NCBI RefSeq assembly: GCF_003334335.1 | Contig: NZ_QOWQ01000004.1 | Source of the DNA: Escherichia coli | GTDB taxonomy: Bacteria; Pseudomonadota; Gammaproteobacteria; Enterobacterales; Enterobacteriaceae | Direction: 5' to 3' (one strand) | DNA: 64,000 nucleotides | Shown here: positions 3,404 through 58,669 of the stretch, piece after piece | How the letters are laid out: each line of letters starts with the position of its first letter | Numbering within the stretch: the stretch's first letter is position 1 | Program-made: the position numbers and the translations under genes | The notes under the pieces: model-generated | What the model was told of the DNA's origin: nothing | Databases searched by the model: none | Seen by the model: only the letters and a program-made list of their open reading frames with translations

Positions 3404-5938
3404 ATGGCCGGGAATGACCGCGAGCCAATTGGACGCAAAGGGAAACCGACGCGTCCGGTCAAACAAAAGGTAAGCCGTCGTCGTTACGAAGATGACGATG
3501 ATTACGACGATTATGATGACTATGAGGATGAAGAACCGATGCCGCGCAAAGGTAAGGGCAAAGGCAAAGGGCGTAAGCCTCGTGGCAAACGCGGCTGGCT
3601 ATGGCTACTGCTAAAACTGGCTATCGTTTTTGCCGTGCTGATCGCCATTTACGGCGTTTATCTCGATCAAAAAATTCGTAGCCGTATTGATGGCAAGGTC
3701 TGGCAACTGCCTGCGGCAGTTTATGGCCGAATGGTCAATCTTGAGCCAGACATGACCATCAGCAAGAACGAGATGGTGAAGCTGCTGGAGGCGACCCAGT
3801 ATCGTCAGGTGTCGAAAATGACCCGTCCTGGCGAATTTACCGTGCAGGCCAACAGCATTGAGATGATTCGCCGTCCGTTTGATTTCCCGGACAGTAAAGA
3901 AGGACAGGTGCGCGCGCGTCTGACCTTTGATGGCGATCATCTGGCGACGATCGTCAATATGGAGAACAACCGTCAGTTCGGTTTCTTCCGTCTTGATCCG
4001 CGTCTGATCACCATGATCTCTTCGCCAAACGGTGAGCAGCGTCTGTTTGTGCCGCGCAGTGGTTTCCCGGATTTGCTGGTGGATACTTTGCTGGCGACAG
4101 AAGACCGTCATTTTTACGAGCATGATGGAATCAGTCTCTACTCAATCGGACGTGCGGTGCTGGCAAACCTGACCGCCGGACGCACGGTACAGGGTGCGAG
4201 TACGCTGACGCAACAGCTGGTGAAAAACCTGTTCCTCTCCAGCGAGCGTTCTTACTGGCGTAAAGCGAACGAAGCTTACATGGCGCTGATCATGGACGCG
4301 CGTTACAGCAAAGACCGTATTCTTGAGCTGTATATGAACGAGGTGTATCTCGGTCAGAGCGGCGACAACGAAATCCGCGGCTTCCCGCTGGCAAGCTTGT
4401 ATTACTTTGGTCGCCCGGTAGAAGAGCTAAGCCTCGACCAGCAGGCGCTGTTAGTCGGTATGGTGAAAGGGGCGTCCATCTACAACCCGTGGCGTAACCC
4501 AAAACTGGCGCTGGAGCGACGTAATCTGGTGCTGCGTCTGCTGCAACAGCAACAGATTATTGATCAAGAACTCTATGACATGTTGAGTGCCCGTCCGCTG
4601 GGGGTTCAGCCGCGCGGTGGGGTGATCTCTCCTCAGCCAGCCTTTATGCAACTGGTGCGTCAGGAGCTGCAGGCAAAACTGGGCGATAAGGTAAAAGATC
4701 TCTCCGGCGTGAAGATCTTCACTACCTTTGACTCGGTGGCCCAGGACGCGGCAGAAAAAGCCGCCGTGGAAGGCATTCCGGCACTGAAGAAACAGCGTAA
4801 GTTGAGCGATCTTGAAACTGCGATTGTGGTCGTCGACCGCTTTAGTGGTGAAGTTCGTGCGATGGTCGGAGGTTCTGAGCCGCAGTTTGCGGGCTACAAC
4901 CGTGCGATGCAGGCGCGTCGTTCGATTGGTTCCCTTGCAAAACCAGCGACTTATCTGACGGCCTTAAGCCAGCCGAAAATCTATCGTCTGAATACGTGGA
5001 TTGCGGATGCGCCAATTGCGCTGCGTCAGCCGAATGGCCAGGTCTGGTCACCGCAGAATGATGACCGTCGTTATAGCGAAAGCGGCAGAGTGATGCTGGT
5101 GGATGCGTTGACCCGTTCGATGAACGTGCCGACGGTAAATCTGGGGATGGCGCTGGGGCTGCCTGCGGTTACGGAGACCTGGATTAAACTGGGCGTACCG
5201 AAAGATCAGTTGCATCCGGTTCCGGCAATGCTGCTGGGGGCGTTGAACTTAACGCCAATCGAAGTGGCGCAGGCATTCCAGACCATCGCCAGCGGTGGTA
5301 ACCGTGCACCGCTTTCTGCGCTGCGTTCGGTAATCGCGGAAGATGGCAAAGTGCTGTATCAGAGCTTCCCGCAGGCGGAACGCGCTGTTCCGGCGCAGGC
5401 GGCGTATCTGACACTATGGACCATGCAGCAGGTGGTACAACGCGGTACGGGTCGTCAGCTTGGGGCGAAATACCCGAACCTGCATCTGGCAGGGAAAACA
5501 GGGACTACCAACAATAACGTAGATACCTGGTTTGCGGGCATTGACGGCAGCACGGTGACCATCACCTGGGTCGGCCGTGATAACAACCAGCCGACCAAAC
5601 TGTATGGTGCCAGCGGGGCAATGTCGATTTATCAGCGTTATCTGGCTAACCAGACGCCAACGCCGCTGAATCTTGTTCCGCCAGAAGATATTGCAGATAT
5701 GGGCGTGGACTACGACGGCAACTTTGTTTGCAGCGGTGGCATGCGTATCTTGCCGGTCTGGACCAGCGATCCGCAATCGCTGTGCCAGCAGAGCGAGATG
5801 CAGCAGCAGCCGTCAGGCAATCCGTTTGATCAGTCTTCTCAGCCGCAGCAACAGCCGCAACAGCAACCTGCTCAGCAAGAGCAGAAAGACAGCGACGGTG
5901 TAGCCGGTTGGATCAAGGATATGTTTGGTAGTAATTAA
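3404..5938 (+). CDS. mrcB: Penicillin-binding protein 1B (bifunctional glycosyltransferase/transpeptidase)
   Basis: ORF 3389..5938; start at ATG 3404 ([14 protein letters not shown]...) gives 844 aa; acidic D/Y-rich N-terminus, TM helix, transpeptidase motifs, Q-rich C-terminus. Confidence 0.95.
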
Positions 5939-6091
5939 CATCTAAGCGTGAAATACCGGATGGCGAGTTGCCATCCGGTAAAATAACATCCCATCTAAGA
6001 TATTAACCCTTTCTTTTCATCTGGTTGTTTATTAACCCTTCAGGAACGCTCAGATTGCGTACCGCTTGCGAACCCGCCAGCGTTTCGAATA

Positions 6092-6134
6092 TTATCTTAT
6101 CTTTATAATAATCATTCTCGTTTACGTTATCATT
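6092..6134. promoter_or_regulatory. Fur box(es) in the fhuA promoter
   Basis: attatcttatctttataataatcattctc and gttatcattc resemble the GATAATGATAATCATTATC consensus, 25-65 nt upstream of fhuA. Confidence 0.7.
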
Positions 6135-6157
6135 CACTTTACATCAGAGATATACCA

Positions 6158-8401
6158 ATGGCGCGTTCCAAAACTGCTCAGCCAAAACACTCACTGCGTA
6201 AAATCGCAGTTGTAGTAGCCACAGCGGTTAGCGGCATGTCTGTTTATGCACAGGCAGCGGTTGAACCGAAAGAAGACACTATCACCGTTACCGCTGCACC
6301 TGCGCCGCAAGAAAGCGCATGGGGGCCTGCTGCAACTATTGCGGCGCGACAGTCTGCTACCGGCACTAAAACCGATACGCCGATTCAAAAAGTGCCACAG
6401 TCTATTTCTGTTGTGACCGCCGAAGAGATGGCGCTGCATCAGCCGAAGTCGGTAAAAGAAGCGCTTAGCTACACGCCGGGTGTCTCTGTTGGTACGCGTG
6501 GCGCATCCAACACCTATGACCACCTGATCATTCGCGGCTTTGCGGCAGAAGGCCAAAGCCAGAATAACTATCTGAATGGCCTGAAGTTGCAGGGCAACTT
6601 CTATAACGATGCGGTCATTGACCCGTATATGCTGGAACGCGCTGAAATTATGCGTGGCCCGGTTTCCGTGCTTTACGGTAAAAGCAGTCCTGGCGGCCTG
6701 TTGAATATGGTCAGCAAGCGTCCGACCACCGAACCGCTGAAAGAAGTTCAGTTTAAAGCCGGTACTGACAGCCTGTTCCAGACTGGTTTTGACTTTAGCG
6801 ATTCGTTGGATGATGACGGTGTTTACTCTTATCGCCTGACCGGTCTTGCGCGTTCTGCCAATGCCCAGCAGAAAGGGTCAGAAGAGCAGCGTTATGCTAT
6901 TGCACCGGCGTTCACCTGGCGTCCGGATGATAAAACCAATTTTACCTTCCTTTCTTACTTCCAGAACGAGCCGGAAACCGGTTATTACGGCTGGTTGCCG
7001 AAAGAGGGAACCGTTGAGCCGCTGCCGAACGGTAAGCGTCTGCCGACAGACTTTAATGAAGGGGCGAAGAACAACACCTATTCTCGTAATGAGAAGATGG
7101 TCGGCTACAGCTTCGATCACGAATTTAACGACACCTTTACTGTGCGTCAGAACCTGCGCTTTGCTGAAAACAAAACCTCGCAAAACAGCGTTTATGGTTA
7201 CGGCGTCTGCTCCGATCCGGCGAATGCTTACAGCAAACAGTGTGCGGCATTAGCGCCAGCGGATAAAGGCCATTATCTGGCACGTAAATACGTCGTTGAT
7301 GATGAGAAGCTGCAAAACTTCTCCGTTGATACCCAGTTGCAGAGCAAGTTTGCCACTGGCGATATCGACCACACCCTGCTGACCGGTGTCGACTTTATGC
7401 GTATGCGTAATGACATCAACGCCTGGTTTGGTTACGACGACTCTGTGCCACTGCTCAATCTGTACAATCCGGTGAATACCGATTTCGACTTCAATGCCAA
7501 AGATCCGGCAAACTCCGGCCCTTACCGCATTCTGAATAAACAGAAACAAACGGGCGTTTATGTTCAGGATCAGGCGCAGTGGGATAAAGTGCTGGTCACC
7601 CTAGGCGGTCGTTATGACTGGGCAGATCAAGAATCTCTTAACCGCGTTGCCGGGACGACCGATAAACGTGATGACAAACAGTTTACCTGGCGTGGTGGTG
7701 TTAACTACCTGTTTGATAATGGTGTAACACCTTACTTCAGCTATAGCGAATCGTTTGAACCTTCTTCGCAAGTTGGGAAGGATGGTAATATTTTCGCACC
7801 GTCTAAAGGTAAGCAGTATGAAGTCGGCGTGAAATATGTACCGGAAGATCGTCCGATTGTAGTTACTGGTGCCGTGTATAATCTCACTAAAACCAACAAC
7901 CTGATGGCGGACCCTGAGGGTTCCTTCTTCTCGGTTGAAGGTGGCGAGATCCGCGCACGTGGCGTAGAAATCGAAGCGAAAGCGGCGCTGTCGGCGAGTG
8001 TTAACGTAGTCGGTTCTTATACTTACACCGATGCGGAATACACCACCGATACTACCTATAAAGGCAATACGCCTGCACAGGTGCCAAAACACATGGCTTC
8101 GTTGTGGGCTGACTACACCTTCTTTGACGGTCCGCTTTCAGGTCTGACGCTGGGCACCGGTGGTCGTTATACTGGCTCCAGTTATGGTGATCCGGCTAAC
8201 TCCTTTAAAGTGGGAAGTTATACGGTCGTGGATGCGTTAGTACGTTATGATCTGGCGCGAGTCGGCATGGCTGGCTCCAACGTGGCGCTGCATGTTAACA
8301 ACCTGTTCGATCGTGAATACGTCGCCAGCTGCTTTAACACTTATGGCTGCTTCTGGGGCGCAGAACGTCAGGTCGTTGCAACCGCAACCTTCCGTTTCTA
8401 A
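6158..8401 (+). CDS. fhuA: TonB-dependent outer-membrane ferrichrome receptor FhuA
   Basis: 747-aa ORF with signal peptide, TonB-box region and C-terminal aromatic beta-barrel terminus (..TFRF). Confidence 0.95.
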   Translation: MARSKTAQPKHSLRKIAVVVATAVSGMSVYAQAAVEPKEDTITVTAAPAPQESAWGPAATIAARQSATGTKTDTPIQKVPQSISVVTAEEMALHQPKSVKEALSYTPGVSVGTRGASNTYDHLIIRGFAAEGQSQNNYLNGLKLQGNFYNDAVIDPYMLERAEIMRGPVSVLYGKSSPGGLLNMVSKRPTTEPLKEVQFKAGTDSLFQTGFDFSDSLDDDGVYSYRLTGLARSANAQQKGSEEQRYAIAPAFTWRPDDKTNFTFLSYFQNEPETGYYGWLPKEGTVEPLPNGKRLPTDFNEGAKNNTYSRNEKMVGYSFDHEFNDTFTVRQNLRFAENKTSQNSVYGYGVCSDPANAYSKQCAALAPADKGHYLARKYVVDDEKLQNFSVDTQLQSKFATGDIDHTLLTGVDFMRMRNDINAWFGYDDSVPLLNLYNPVNTDFDFNAKDPANSGPYRILNKQKQTGVYVQDQAQWDKVLVTLGGRYDWADQESLNRVAGTTDKRDDKQFTWRGGVNYLFDNGVTPYFSYSESFEPSSQVGKDGNIFAPSKGKQYEVGVKYVPEDRPIVVTGAVYNLTKTNNLMADPEGSFFSVEGGEIRARGVEIEAKAALSASVNVVGSYTYTDAEYTTDTTYKGNTPAQVPKHMASLWADYTFFDGPLSGLTLGTGGRYTGSSYGDPANSFKVGSYTVVDALVRYDLARVGMAGSNVALHVNNLFDREYVASCFNTYGCFWGAERQVVATATFRF

Positions 8402-52308: not shown

Positions 52309-52343
52309 AGCCGGATAAGACGCATCAAACGTCGCATCCGGCG
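52309..52343. repeat. REP (repetitive extragenic palindrome) element
   Basis: gccggataagacgc..gtcgcatccggc imperfect palindrome at the convergent tilS/rof junction. Confidence 0.6.
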
Positions 52344-52351
52344 AAAGTCAA

Positions 52352-52606
52352 TCAGGATTCGCTTACCACCACCGTACCGATTTCCGGGTGGCTAAAGCTG
52401 GTAATTTTATCCAGACGCAGCTCGCGGGTTTCGCCAGCGGCCTCGACGACCAGGTACTCCACATTTTTGCGGGAGACTAAATCACTGGCTTTTGCCTGCA
52501 ATTTTTCGCCATCTTTCAGCTCAAGTGTCAGCATTAAATGATGCTGGCAGGCGAGCTCAAGATTATCGTAATCATCACAATTGATTGGTTGATACGTATC
52601 ATTCAT
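52352..52606 (-). CDS. rof: Rho-binding antiterminator Rof
   Basis: ORF 52352..52612; start set at the second ATG ([21 protein letters not shown]...) for 84 aa; the upstream ATG at 52612 is an alternative. Confidence 0.85.
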
Positions 52607-52799
52607 TGACATAATCGCTCACCAGTAAGTTTGCCGCAGCGTATGCTGCTTTTTCCCTGACAGCCTCAGAAAGGGCGTCGTCGGCAGCCATTTCATTCAG
52701 CACTTTCAAAACGCAGCCCAGCGCGTCCGGAACGTATCCTAAGTCTCCGCTGGCGATTTCCGCGTACCGCTTGCGTATTAACTCACAATATTTTTCCAC
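52599..52799 (-). CDS. yaeP: UPF0253 small protein YaeP (function unknown)
   Basis: ORF 52599..52817 trimmed to GTG 52799 ([18 protein letters not shown]...), 66 aa; its stop overlaps the rof start. Confidence 0.8.
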
Positions 52800-52964
52800 A
52801 TGCCCTCCTGTCAGCACTCTGACTTAACCGTGGATGCAAGTCTAAGCCTACGAAGATAAACTCTGTTTCGCAAGGTGACTATACCACACTCATTTCTGCA
52901 ATATCAGCGCCGCAACTGCACGTATTCCGTTACAATGGCCTCCTGATTCGAAAGGAGTTTTCTT

Positions 52965-53510
52965 ATGGCGCTTAAAGCGACAATTTATAAAGCGACGGTT
53001 AATGTGGCCGATCTCGACCGCAACCAGTTTCTCGATGCCTCTCTGACGCTGGCGCGCCATCCTTCAGAAACCCAGGAGCGTATGATGCTGCGCTTGCTGG
53101 CGTGGCTGAAATATGCTGATGAACGTCTGCAATTTACCCGTGGTTTGTGTGCCGATGATGAGCCGGAAGCGTGGCTGCGTAACGATCACCTGGGCATTGA
53201 TTTGTGGATTGAGCTGGGGCTGCCGGATGAGCGGCGGATTAAGAAAGCCTGCACCCAGGCCGCAGAAGTGGCGCTGTTTACCTATAATAGTCGGGCGGCG
53301 CAAATCTGGTGGCAGCAAAATCAGAGCAAATGTGTGCAGTTTGCCAATCTTTCCGTCTGGTATCTGGACGATGAACAACTGGCGAAAGTAAGCGCCTTTG
53401 CCGATCGTACCATGACGCTGCAGGCAACGATTCAGGATGGCGTGATCTGGTTATCGGATGATAAGAATAATCTGGAAGTGAACTTAACCGCCTGGCAACA
53501 ACCTTCATGA
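52965..53510 (+). CDS. yaeQ: YaeQ-family protein (function unknown)
   Basis: 181-aa [24 protein letters not shown]... Confidence 0.88.
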
Positions 53511-53929
53511 TTGTGATTTCCCGACATGTTGCTATTCCCGATGGTGAGCTTGAGATCACCGCCATTCGTGCGCAGGGCGCGGGCGGGCAGCATGTTAATA
53601 AGACCTCAACGGCTATTCATCTGCGTTTTGACATTCGGGCGTCCAGCCTGCCAGAGTATTACAAAGAGCGTCTGCTCGCCGCCAGCCATCATTTGATCAG
53701 CAGTGATGGCGTGATTGTCATTAAGGCACAGGAATACCGCAGTCAGGAACTGAACCGCGAAGCAGCTCTGGCCCGGCTGGTGGCTATGATTAAAGAATTA
53801 ACAACAGAAAAAAAAGCCCGACGACCCACGCGGCCCACCCGTGCATCGAAAGAGCGCAGGCTGGCATCGAAAGCACAAAAATCAAGCGTGAAGGCGATGC
53901 GCGGCAAAGTGCGCAGCGGTCGGGAATAA
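53507..53929 (+). CDS. arfB: Peptidyl-tRNA hydrolase ArfB (alternative ribosome-rescue factor B, YaeJ)
   Basis: 140-aa ORF with release-factor GGQ motif ([12 protein letters not shown]) and basic C-terminal tail; ATGA overlap with the yaeQ stop. Confidence 0.92.
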
Positions 53930-53942
53930 AAAGAAGGAATGG

Positions 53943-54653
53943 ATGGTGAAAAAAGCGATAGTGACAGCGATGGCTGTAATCAGCCTCTTTACTCTGATGG
54001 GATGTAATAATCGGGCCGAAGTCGATACGCTTTCTCCGGCGCAGGCTGCCGAACTGAAACCGATGCCGCAAAGTTGGCGCGGCGTGCTGCCGTGTGCCGA
54101 TTGCGAAGGAATCGAAACCTCTCTGTTCCTCGAAAAAGACGGAACATGGGTGATGAATGAGCGTTATCTCGGTGCTCGTGAAGAACCTTCCTCCTTCGCT
54201 TCCTACGGTACATGGGCGCGAACCGCTGACAAGCTGGTATTAACCGACAGCAAAGGTGAAAAGTCATATTATCGGGCGAAAGGCGATGCGCTGGAGATGC
54301 TCGATCGTGAAGGCAATCCGATTGAATCGCAGTTCAACTATACGCTGGAAGCGGCACAATCCAGTTTACCTATGACGCCGATGACCCTGCGGGGCATGTA
54401 TTTTTATATGGCTGATGCGGCGACCTTCACTGATTGCGCGACCGGAAAACGTTTCATGGTAGCGAATAACGCAGAGCTGGAGCGTAGCTACCTGGCTGCG
54501 CGCGGTCACAGTGAAAAACCGGTGTTACTGTCAGTAGAAGGTCACTTTACGCTTGAGGGTAATCCGGATACCGGTGCGCCGACTAAAGTATTGGCACCCG
54601 ATACGGCAGGGAAATTTTACCCCAACCAGGATTGCAGTAGTTTGGGGCAGTAA
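53943..54653 (+). CDS. nlpE: Outer-membrane lipoprotein NlpE (CutF), Cpx-pathway surface sensor
   Basis: 236-aa ORF with lipobox LMGC and CxxC motif (PCADCEG). Confidence 0.92.
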   Translation: MVKKAIVTAMAVISLFTLMGCNNRAEVDTLSPAQAAELKPMPQSWRGVLPCADCEGIETSLFLEKDGTWVMNERYLGAREEPSSFASYGTWARTADKLVLTDSKGEKSYYRAKGDALEMLDREGNPIESQFNYTLEAAQSSLPMTPMTLRGMYFYMADAATFTDCATGKRFMVANNAELERSYLAARGHSEKPVLLSVEGHFTLEGNPDTGAPTKVLAPDTAGKFYPNQDCSSLGQ

Positions 54654-54728: not shown

Positions 54729-54848
<120 letters not shown>

Positions 54849-57560: not shown

Positions 57561-58268
57561 TTAACGCGGTTCCAGCGCAAAGACTTCAAAACCTGCGTCG
57601 GTGACGCGCCAGCGAACGTTAAAATCATGTAGCCAGACGGCATAGGTTTTGCCCGTTTCCTCACCTTTACGATAGGCCGGGCGCGGGTCCTGCGCCAGTA
57701 CTTCGCGGATAAACAGCGTTAACTGCGGATAACGCTTCTCCAGCGTCAAAAGCTGCTTTTCGACCTCTGCGGTAAAACTCACCGCCATCTCTGCAGCTGG
57801 CGCACTTTGCGCATAGCTGGCACTGGCATCGGGAAGCGATTCGGCAAAGGGGAGATACGGTTTGATATCCACTACCGGCGTACCATCGACCAGATCCAGA
57901 CTGCCGAGCTTCAGAATCACGCTGTCTTTATGGCAAACAACCTCTTTCAGCTCTACCAGCGACATGCCAATTGGGTTAGGGCGGAAAGTAGAGCGTGTTG
58001 CGAAAACCCCCATTCTGGCGTTACCGCCGAGGCGCGGTGGACGCACAGTCGGACGCCAGCCGCCTTCCATCGTTTGATGAAAGACGAAAAGGATCCATAA
58101 ATGGCTGAACGCTTCCAGGCCGCGAACGGCGTCGGCCTGGTTGTAGGGAGCAATGAGATGCAGTTCGCCGTTGGCGCTTTTTACCAGACCTGGCTGGCGC
58201 GGAACGGCGAACTTTTCTTTATAGGGCGAGCGAATAACGCCTATTTGCTCGAACTGGAAACTGCTCAT
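57561..58268 (-). CDS. tsaA: tRNA (adenine37-N6)-methyltransferase TsaA (YaeB)
   Basis: 235-aa ORF MSSFQFEQIGVIRSPYKEKFAVPRQPG... Confidence 0.9.
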   Translation of the reverse strand: MSSFQFEQIGVIRSPYKEKFAVPRQPGLVKSANGELHLIAPYNQADAVRGLEAFSHLWILFVFHQTMEGGWRPTVRPPRLGGNARMGVFATRSTFRPNPIGMSLVELKEVVCHKDSVILKLGSLDLVDGTPVVDIKPYLPFAESLPDASASYAQSAPAAEMAVSFTAEVEKQLLTLEKRYPQLTLFIREVLAQDPRPAYRKGEETGKTYAVWLHDFNVRWRVTDAGFEVFALEPR

Positions 58269-58669
58269 TTCGCCGTAATGTTAAGCGCAGAACCGATACA
58301 TACAGCCTGACGATAGCAGCCTGGCGTACCGCTGGTGACTTCGCAGCTATGCAGTAATACAGCATTGGCTTTCATTTTAGAGGCGTTGATTTGCATCCGC
58401 TTACGTGCGGTTGGAATGCTCGGCGGAGAGTCCTGATTAGAGGCCTGGCAAGAGTCGCCACTGACTTCACCGAGATCGCGGAACGGTTTGCCGACTAATT
58501 CTTCTGCATTGGTATAAATTCGGACCGGCGTGGCGCGCGGCGCTTTCGGTTTTGCAGGCTCCGCTTTCGGCTGGGGTGCAGTGCTTTGAACGGGTTCGAC
58601 AGGGGATCTGCTTAACATGGAACAGCCGCTTAGCATGAGTGCTACTAAACAGATCGGTAAAGCACGCAT
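58265..58669 (-). CDS. rcsF: Outer-membrane lipoprotein RcsF (Rcs phosphorelay sensor)
   Basis: 134-aa ORF with lipobox LSGC; its stop overlaps the tsaA start (ATGA). Confidence 0.93.
   Translation of the reverse strand: MRALPICLVALMLSGCSMLSRSPVEPVQSTAPQPKAEPAKPKAPRATPVRIYTNAEELVGKPFRDLGEVSGDSCQASNQDSPPSIPTARKRMQINASKMKANAVLLHSCEVTSGTPGCYRQAVCIGSALNITAK

Follow-up and report, generated by a model that had tools for sequence, protein, structure and literature searches.

A segment of the window (the whole 64,000-nucleotide stretch of Escherichia coli DNA that was analysed) is the known, already annotated E. coli K-12 yaeQ-arfB(yaeJ)-nlpE operon. In all likelihood its arfB gene is translationally coupled to yaeQ and the linkage of the two genes is a co-expression arrangement that points weakly to a shared role. 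Comparison across genomes showed that the linkage extends through the order Enterobacterales and recurs, with the gene order reversed, in two unrelated proteobacterial lineages.

Layout and translation signals of the yaeQ-arfB-nlpE locus

The locus is made up of the following features.

52931-52936, plus strand: TACAAT box, candidate -10 element of the yaeQ promoter, inferred from conservation
52952-52957, plus strand: yaeQ Shine-Dalgarno sequence, AAGGAG, read from the sequence (anti-SD duplex -8.2 kcal/mol)
52965-53510, plus strand: yaeQ coding sequence, 181 aa, YaeQ family (PF07152/COG4681), PD-(D/E)XK-like fold, from ORFs and Pfam
53507-53510, plus strand: ATGA stop/start overlap, the probable translational coupling junction, read from the sequence
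53507-53929, plus strand: arfB (yaeJ) coding sequence, 140 aa, GGQ peptidyl-tRNA hydrolase with a basic C-terminal tail, from ORFs and NCBIfam
53933-53938, plus strand: nlpE Shine-Dalgarno sequence, GAAGGA, read from the sequence (anti-SD duplex -5.7 kcal/mol)
53943-54653, plus strand: nlpE coding sequence, 236 aa, outer-membrane lipoprotein and activator of the Cpx response, from ORFs, NCBIfam and RefSeq
54732-54808, plus strand: REP element (Rfam naRNA4/RF02564; 92.8 bits, gathering score 59.5), downstream of nlpE, closing the locus

E. coli K-12 MG1655 is 100% identical to the window over the yaeQ-arfB-nlpE region, its RefSeq annotation places three coding sequences there with the same boundaries, and 5423 of 5426 complete E. 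coli genomes carry the region. The K-12 locus drawn by Said et al. 2024 (the Rof paper; PMC11018626, Fig. 1e), in which arfB overlaps the upstream ORF and lacks a Shine-Dalgarno (SD) sequence, shows no difference from the window in sequence, boundaries, four-nucleotide overlap, absent arfB SD or flanking REPs; the REP downstream of nlpE is called insulating in the same paper. The arfB stop codon (TAA, 53927-53929) is followed by a 13-nt gap and then the nlpE ATG at 53943, and on this spacing and on the identities given to the three genes by the initial annotation the sequence, the ORFs, the profile matches and RefSeq MG1655 all agree. ArfB matches the NCBIfam equivalog NF006718 at 201.5 bits (cut-off 100), has its GGQ motif at residues 26-28 (nt 53582-53590) and carries a charge of +12.4 on its basic C-terminal tail (residues 100-140), as befits the GGQ peptidyl-tRNA hydrolase it was taken to be. 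NlpE matches the equivalog NF007814 at 397.7 bits (cut-off 243) and has an LMGC lipobox at residues 18-21.

The proposed overlap of the yaeQ stop with the arfB start is indeed present, the TGA of yaeQ being overlapped by the ATG of arfB within ATGA at 53507-53510. No SD was found within 22 nt before the arfB ATG, where the anti-SD duplex energy of -1.5 kcal/mol is weaker than the background mean of -2.8 kcal/mol, and in Enterobacterales the mean energies are -6.95, -3.03 and -6.66 kcal/mol for yaeQ, arfB and nlpE, respectively. The pair has the two properties by which we define coupling, a stop/start overlap or near-abutment and a downstream gene that lacks an SD of its own. Because yaeQ and nlpE have an SD and arfB has none, the supply of ArfB most likely comes from ribosomes that have finished yaeQ and would re-initiate at arfB by termination-reinitiation coupling. 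Such coupling would keep ArfB low and in proportion to YaeQ, and nlpE would be translated from its own ribosome-binding site 13 nt beyond arfB. A low native output of ArfB would agree with the finding that losing trans-translation (ssrA/tmRNA) together with arfA is synthetically lethal in spite of the chromosomal arfB, a gene that rescues only in multicopy (PMC8012679). The arfB of Yersiniaceae and Hafniaceae lies 1-5 nt from yaeQ and is preceded by an SD of moderate strength (-5 to -7 kcal/mol), so that a strict need for yaeQ translation is not universal.

In almost every one of 34 aligned Enterobacterales loci, the yaeQ ATG is preceded at a distance of 29-34 nt by TACAAT or TACACT; a consensus promoter scan upstream of yaeQ did not call the TACAAT box, for want of a good -35 element. 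Transcription would run rightwards from the divergent yaeP/yaeQ intergenic region and end at the REP element. A terminator scan of the region found no terminator-like site between yaeQ, arfB and nlpE, and one weak hairpin inside nlpE (53972-53985). The three genes form one operon in a list that PMC4448311 uses, and one ethanol-induced expression signature includes both yaeQ and yaeJ (PMC1599756). From the sequence and this secondary literature, co-transcription of yaeQ, arfB and nlpE is plausible. An SD-sequestering hairpin or attenuator flagged by the scan upstream of yaeQ (52940-52957, CTCCT...AGGAG and then a T run) was rejected; its 5′ arm is conserved only in E. coli and E. albertii, and, with transcription probably starting just after the conserved TACAAT box, the hairpin would fall at that start or before it.

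Distribution of the yaeQ-arfB linkage

Within Enterobacterales, yaeQ and arfB are adjacent in 28 of 32 informative loci, with junctions of -4 to +7 nt: 20 are four-nucleotide overlaps, two are one-nucleotide overlaps and six are gaps of 1-7 nt. The adjacency covers Enterobacteriaceae, Erwiniaceae, Yersiniaceae and Hafniaceae and is lost in Pectobacteriaceae, where yaeQ and nlpE are kept with no arfB between them. The entire tilS-rof-yaeP-yaeQ-arfB-nlpE-proS block shows synteny throughout Enterobacterales, so that vertical inheritance would be enough to account for the 28 loci. Overlaps as such are ordinary, occurring at 4 of the 13 co-directional junctions in the surrounding 14.3 kb (rof/yaeP, yaeQ/arfB, rcsF/tsaA and metI/metN); the non-random part of the yaeQ/arfB junction is its conservation, not its four-nucleotide overlap type.

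Two apparent extensions of this picture were set aside. A locus labelled as a Neisseriaceae MAG (L035) was not counted as an independent lineage, its YaeQ being closest to those of Yersiniaceae and Hafniaceae (69%). YaeQ-ArfB fusions were sought as Rosetta-stone evidence, and only P0018 and the fragment P0242 were found; both look like deletion or assembly artefacts. P0018, from E. albertii, is a 231-aa protein in which YaeQ residues 1 to ~160 are joined to ArfB residues 65-140, without the GGQ motif.

Outside the order, arfB adjoins yaeQ in 3 of 46 genome loci (~6%) and is absent from the other 43; on informative metagenome contigs it lies near yaeQ in none of five, absence being scored in both sets as no arfB within ~5 kb of yaeQ. 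All three non-enterobacterial adjacencies have the reversed gene order, and they represent two independent lineages. In L050, arfB and yaeQ overlap by 11 nt, and L079, the mutual closest YaeQ relative of L050 (68%), has a 159-nt gap; in L070 the two genes are 1 nt apart and lie behind prfC. Unbiased neighbour clustering of the non-enterobacterial loci left yaeQ stand-alone, with no conserved neighbour, in most lineages, and identified ArfB as the only family directly adjacent to and co-directional with yaeQ in several unrelated lineages. The possibility that tblastn had missed divergent ArfB proteins was discarded, as jackhmmer with ArfB over all ORFs of 81 loci gave no further homologues; tblastn at E≤10 on extra metagenome loci likewise gave no ArfB. 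The genome scan used a 21-sequence ARHPSET subset (A2), which biases the sample to that subfamily, the 52-sequence YaeQ alignment (A1) having no sufficiently conserved stretch of 7-10 residues for a scan. The metagenome contigs came from 50%-identity representatives and were mostly too short, leaving the five usable ones.

We read the yaeQ-arfB linkage as an order-wide synteny of Enterobacterales that has arisen twice elsewhere. The adjacency is thus not confined to close relatives of E. coli. Sought across Proteobacteria, the adjacency is present in most Enterobacterales loci and, in reversed order, in the two unrelated proteobacterial lineages, and missing from the 43 remaining genome loci.

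The YaeQ fold and readings of the linkage

YaeQ matches Pfam PF07152 over its full length (E=3e-71; residues 1-173 aligned to positions 1-172 of the 173-position model), and the window protein is no different from the YaeQ family (PF07152, COG4681). The sequence is identical to that of PDB 3C0U, the solved structure of E. coli YaeQ, and this entry and the other family entries (2G3W, 2OT9 and 7TCB) are labelled uncharacterised in the PDB. There is no NCBIfam equivalog match and no demonstrated biochemical activity for the family in the literature we found, in line with the initial annotation, which knew of no established function. The nuclease-like fold for which it proposed a search is present: the YaeQ core, α-β-β-β-α-β, is similar to that of PD-(D/E)XK superfamily members and is the core fold of PD-(D/E)XK phosphodiesterases such as restriction endonucleases, Hef/XPF and Tox-REase-5. 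Publication of this fold in 2007 is recorded by a citation in PMC3424549 (Guzzo 2007). The conserved cluster of YaeQ comprises E35, E66, acidic residues 68 and 83, and K94, and the acidic residues occupy PD-(D/E)XK strand positions (E66-P67-(D/E)68 and (E/D)83). Among 81 sequences, conservation is 80/81 for E66, 77/81 for an acidic residue at 68, 78/81 for one at 83 and 80/81 for K94; the wider set of 52 sequences includes some without an acidic residue at position 83. At the position of the canonical Lys of (D/E)XK, YaeQ has an invariant Gly85; the role of that Lys may fall to K94 in the following helix. Based on the fold and on the conserved acidic/Lys cluster, YaeQ is probably a metal-dependent phosphodiesterase. 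A defence-system or phage origin of YaeQ was also considered and dropped, as neither PADLOC nor PHROG gave a match.

The tight coupling of YaeQ to a ribosome-rescue factor had been put forward as a functional lead. The lead gains from the recurrence of the adjacency beyond Enterobacterales and loses from its absence in 43 of 46 genome loci and all five contigs and from its loss in Pectobacteriaceae, and any shared role in translation quality control is weakly indicated by the linkage. There is about an even chance that the adjacency is a historical accident of the Enterobacterales layout with no shared function, arfB merely initiating at the yaeQ stop and YaeQ acting on DNA or another substrate, or serving as a non-catalytic binding protein. 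The stand-alone yaeQ of most lineages, the other yaeQ neighbours (glyoxalase and GNAT) described in PMC3424549, the DNA enzymes that are the PD-(D/E)XK relatives of YaeQ, the replacement of the canonical Lys by Gly85, the commonness of four-nucleotide overlaps nearby and the order-wide synteny of the block, by which the 28 loci need no more than vertical inheritance, all favour an accident, which leaves unexplained the independent, tight, reversed-order pairs of L050/L079 and L070 and the rank of ArfB as the top recurrent adjacent family in unbiased clustering. These same recurrences speak for a functional partnership, the adjacency having arisen at least three times, in both orders, tight and co-directional (in Enterobacterales, in the L050/L079 clade and, by prfC, in L070), where random order would give an estimated ~0.03 adjacent pairs in 46 loci (two neighbours of ~3000-4000 genes). 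In such a partnership, which we consider rather unlikely, YaeQ would be a nuclease, directed at the ribosome or at mRNA, that cleaves or shortens the mRNA of stalled ribosomes, hence the coupled genes; it would either produce short 3′ overhangs as required by ArfB or clear the RNA after its release. A trimming nuclease would make sense because ArfB is less active once the mRNA reaches more than ~9 nt beyond the P site (PMC8012679, PMC7427801), and the nuclease-like fold with its conserved acidic and Lys residues, DEAD-box RNA helicase genes within ~1.1 kb of yaeQ in three other loci, and the altered tolerance of a P. aeruginosa YaeQ-homologue mutant to the ribosome-targeting antibiotic tobramycin (PMC3197603) are consistent with it. 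The more specific proposal that YaeQ is an RNA-directed PD-(D/E)XK nuclease trimming the mRNA of stalled ribosomes for ArfB-type (tail-in-channel) rescue is quite unlikely; it would account for an arfB gene coupled to yaeQ at least three times and in both orders. Precedents for GGQ or rescue factors teamed with enzymes that cut or repair RNA, on ribosomes that are damaged or stalled, are the PrfH-RtcB operons and the SmrB endonuclease, whose action precedes that of tmRNA. YaeQ differs from these in belonging to another enzyme family and in having a far less pervasive linkage to arfB.

Translational coupling is typical where gene products form complexes, and YaeQ might instead bind ArfB as an acidic chaperone or inhibitor, masking the very basic C-terminal tail of ArfB until that tail is needed, which would account for stoichiometric, coupled synthesis. 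The charges are complementary, with a pI of 4.9 (-6.3) for YaeQ and 10.8 (+14) for ArfB, whose tail alone contributes +12.4. Set against these charges, AlphaFold2 prediction of a linked YaeQ-(GGGGS)6-ArfB chain from a 23-row paired alignment gave no confident docking: its pTM of 0.51 is what two domains placed independently of each other would give, and the tail of ArfB came out as a free helix. The test is crude, read from pTM without PAE or coordinates, and counts as a weak negative for a physical complex. In addition, an adjacent arfB is missing from most YaeQ-bearing lineages, and the conserved YaeQ residues resemble an active site, not an interface. We regard masking as highly improbable, and a co-expression arrangement with arfB coupled to yaeQ remains our overall reading of the locus.

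Relation to earlier work and consequences for YaeQ and ArfB

Earlier publications already contain the locus, its overlap, the YaeQ fold and the functional hypothesis. GeCoViz 2022 (PMC9252766) used yaeQ-yaeJ as a worked example and drew the same functional inference from its STM0239/yaeQ case study, in which 55 Enterobacteriaceae were examined; what is added here is the order-wide anatomy of the junction, the finding that Pectobacteriaceae have lost the adjacency, its frequency of ~6% beyond Enterobacterales and its recurrence there with the gene order reversed. These comparative data amount to a weakly supported, lineage-restricted association of yaeQ with arfB.

As arfB lacks an SD, yaeQ insertion or deletion mutants (e.g. 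yaeQ::kan, PMC5847654) will probably have polar effects on arfB, and perhaps on nlpE too, and reported yaeQ phenotypes need to be read with the likely polarity on arfB in view. YaeQ is a conserved E. coli protein with crystal structures, and a real connection to ArfB would help to explain both its function and what the chromosomally encoded ArfB of E. coli does in the cell (PMC8012679). If true, a nuclease step would join the ArfB pathway, whose mitochondrial counterpart is ICT1.

Anatomy of the yaeQ-arfB-nlpE operon

The locus at 52965-54653 is securely recognized as the known yaeQ-arfB-nlpE operon, in which arfB is predicted from its junction with yaeQ to be translationally coupled to that gene. 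The features to which we refer are the following.

Features of the yaeQ-arfB-nlpE locus
52309-52416, weak REP element (Rfam scan)
52931-52936, candidate -10 element of yaeQ (TACAAT/TACACT), 29-34 nt upstream of the ATG, from conservation
52952-52957, + strand, yaeQ Shine-Dalgarno (SD) sequence AAGGAG, -8.2 kcal/mol
52965-53510, + strand, yaeQ, 181-aa ORF
53507-53929, + strand, arfB (yaeJ), 140-aa ORF
53933-53938, + strand, nlpE SD sequence GAAGGA, -5.7 kcal/mol
53943-54653, + strand, nlpE, 236-aa ORF
54732-54808, downstream REP element (Rfam naRNA4, 92.8 bits)

The yaeQ TGA shares an ATGA at 53507-53510 with the arfB ATG, and 13 nt separate the arfB TAA from the nlpE ATG; the sequence and its ORFs bear out the initial annotation in its coordinates, overlap and gap alike. 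The segment is 100% identical to that of E. coli K-12 MG1655, at least 80% of it is present in 5423 of 5426 complete E. coli genomes, and its three genes appear in RefSeq with identical boundaries. ArfB (201.5 bits, cut-off 100) and NlpE (397.7 bits, cut-off 243) are named by NCBIfam equivalog models, as are the products of the flanking rof, yaeP and yaeF. YaeQ matched no NCBIfam model, only Pfam PF07152 (E=3e-71), and is still without a functional name.

An operon list used in one study places arfB, nlpE and yaeQ together (PMC4448311), a single ethanol-induced signature contains both yaeQ and yaeJ (PMC1599756), and our sequence scan found no terminator-like sites between the three genes. The five-gene yae locus has been described as bracketed by REP elements (PMC11018626). 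Upstream of yaeQ, the TACAAT/TACACT box is kept in nearly all Enterobacterales loci; it has no recognizable -35 partner and was missed by a consensus promoter scan. A hairpin that would sequester the yaeQ SD (52940-52957, CTCCT...AGGAG followed by a T run) is likely not functional, as its conservation stops at E. coli and E. albertii and the start of transcription probably falls inside it.

The yaeQ/arfB overlap is not unusual in itself. The K-12 annotation shows 13 co-directional junctions over the surrounding 14.3 kb, and 4 of these overlap (rof/yaeP, yaeQ/arfB, rcsF/tsaA and metI/metN). The informative part is the anatomy of the junction. When SD strength was taken as the pairing energy of the 16S anti-SD with the 22 nt before each start, arfB scored just -1.5 kcal/mol, short of the mean of -2.8 for the window background. 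It follows that arfB has no separate ribosome-binding site, and translation by termination-reinitiation coupled to yaeQ would be the most economical explanation. The Fig. 1e legend of Said et al. 2024 (PMC11018626) describes arfB as lacking an SD and overlapping the upstream ORF, and a low, coupled synthesis of ArfB would agree with published work.

Distribution of the yaeQ-arfB adjacency

A YaeQ alignment run against one genome per species (GTDB) yielded 80 loci with 5-kb flanks. These were queried with the E. coli proteins, and an iterated ArfB profile was run on all of their ORFs. We found arfB directly after yaeQ in 28 of 32 informative Enterobacterales loci, in genera that include Escherichia, Citrobacter, Enterobacter, Klebsiella, Kluyvera, Pantoea, Erwinia, Serratia, Rahnella, Yersinia, Hafnia and Rosenbergiella, the usual syntenic block being tilS / rof-yaeP (divergent) / yaeQ-arfB-nlpE / proS. 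The junction is tight in all 28 pairs: 20 overlap by 4 nt (ATGA or GTGA, one with a doubtful GTA start), 2 overlap by 1 nt, and 6, from Yersiniaceae, Hafniaceae and Mangrovibacter, have a gap of 1-7 nt and an arfB with a moderate SD. The remaining four loci belong to Pectobacteriaceae (Pectobacterium, Brenneria and two Dickeya; L027, L030, L031 and L032, ~5001-6300 in each); here arfB was not found at the locus and nlpE follows yaeQ after 55-165 nt. Because this family is nested inside Enterobacterales, the absence is most simply a secondary loss.

A yaeQ-arfB pair with a TAAATG junction lies in a MAG labelled Neisseriaceae (L035:5001-5966). Its YaeQ is closest to those of Yersiniaceae and Hafniaceae (69%) and its neighbours, an MFS efflux gene and modD, are unrelated to the enterobacterial block; the pair could stem from mis-binning, from an enterobacterial lineage not yet sampled or from horizontal transfer.

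The 46 loci outside Enterobacterales come from other Gamma- and Betaproteobacteria, one Geothermobacter and one Nitrospirae MAG. Among them, arfB lies within 5 kb of yaeQ in only three (~6% of lineages), each time upstream of it.

Loci outside Enterobacterales with arfB upstream of yaeQ
L050:388-2991, tubeworm endosymbiont, arfB/yaeQ overlap of 11 nt
L079:1560-4555, gammaproteobacterial MAG, arfB-yaeQ gap of 159 nt
L070:2719-5558, Gallionellaceae MAG, prfC-arfB-yaeQ on one strand, arfB-yaeQ gap of 1 nt

L050 and L079 have YaeQ proteins that are mutual closest relatives (68%), and the closest relatives of the L070 protein are all without arfB; the three loci thus stand for two independent events. 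By our own estimate, random gene order would give ~0.03 adjacent pairs in 46 genomes, so that this recurrence is unlikely to be due to chance. Clustering of all flanking ORFs at the non-enterobacterial loci revealed no generally conserved yaeQ neighbour, and ArfB is the sole family found immediately adjacent to and co-directional with yaeQ in several unrelated lineages there. An FKBP-type isomerase, at 4 loci, and DEAD-box RNA helicases, at 3 and within ~1.1 kb, come next in frequency. Five informative metagenome contigs that carry 50%-identity cluster representatives had no RF-1-domain neighbour.

As for the surroundings of these loci, prfC (RF3; 891 bits) lies directly upstream of arfB in L070, making a translation-termination and rescue cluster with yaeQ in it; L050 has greB ~1.2 kb upstream of its arfB; and in L079 the region just before arfB contains a divergent rhlE DEAD-box helicase gene and a small ppnP-like ORF. 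DeaD-like helicase genes occur within ~1.1 kb of yaeQ at two other loci (L036 and L056).

YaeQ and its relation to ArfB

The PD-(D/E)XK-like fold of YaeQ dates from 2007, as cited in PMC3424549. Across 81 genome-derived sequences, H32, P33, S34, E35, R39, R43, G85 and W115 are invariant, E66 and K94 are each present in 80, and positions 68 and 83 are acidic in 77 and 78, respectively, which gives the motif E-P-(D/E)...(E/D)-x-G. Gly85 stands where the canonical Lys is expected, and the conserved Lys sits on the next helix. These residues look like a preserved active site, as predicted from conservation; we found no report of a YaeQ activity in the literature and no match to PADLOC or PHROGs. 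An E. albertii protein of 231 aa annotated as 'YaeQ family protein' (P0018) combines PF07152 with PF00472, joining YaeQ residues 1 to ~160 to ArfB 65-140. It has no GGQ motif, and a deletion pseudogene in one strain is the likeliest explanation.

The initial annotation had proposed that coupling points to a role for YaeQ in ribosome rescue, with co-occurrence outside close relatives of E. coli set beforehand as a test. Such co-occurrence was found across the order and, rarely, elsewhere, which supports the proposal weakly. The proposal gains a little from an adjacency that extends far past E. coli relatives and arose independently in both gene orders; against it, most YaeQ-bearing bacteria are without the linkage, and one enterobacterial family retains yaeQ after losing arfB from the locus. 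We give about even chances to YaeQ and ArfB being functionally unrelated, their synteny merely inherited. That YaeQ makes or clears truncated mRNA for ArfB is unlikely, though attractive in view of the drop in ArfB activity once more than ~9 nt of mRNA reach past the P site (PMC8012679, PMC7427801). Direct binding draws on charge, the YaeQ family being acidic (median pI 5.3; E. coli YaeQ net charge -6.3) and ArfB the opposite, very basic (pI 10.8, charge +14), so that YaeQ might bind the basic ArfB tail. However, an AF2 prediction of a linked chain from a paired 23-sequence alignment, a crude test, gave a pTM of 0.51, as would be expected for two independent domains, and we regard such binding as highly improbable.

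Neighbouring operons and implications

No element of the yaeQ-arfB findings is new: the locus and the overlap, both annotated already, are drawn in PMC11018626, and the interpretation, partly supported here, is already published. What we add is the order-wide junction anatomy, the Pectobacteriaceae loss, the rarity of the linkage outside Enterobacterales and its recurrences in reversed order.

The divergent yaeP-rof pair (52352-52799, - strand) has the same architecture as yaeQ-arfB, with an overlap of 14 nt in RefSeq versus 8 nt in PMC11018626, where the second Met is used. At 57561-58669 (- strand) there is a 4-nt overlap between tsaA/trmO and rcsF, whose product is the second envelope-stress sensor lipoprotein; nlpE and rcsF thus lie on either side of proS, each in a tight operon with genes related to translation or tRNA.

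Since arfB has no SD and would rely on yaeQ translation, phenotypes of yaeQ::kan or transposon insertions may reflect polarity on arfB and nlpE. The reduced gut colonization of E. coli K1 yaeQ::kan (PMC5847654) may be such an effect, and a multicopy tilS'-rof-yaeP-yaeQ-arfB' fragment (PMC7648144) is another possible case. That YaeQ serves ArfB-mediated rescue as an RNA nuclease we consider quite improbable; if true, it would be of substantial interest.
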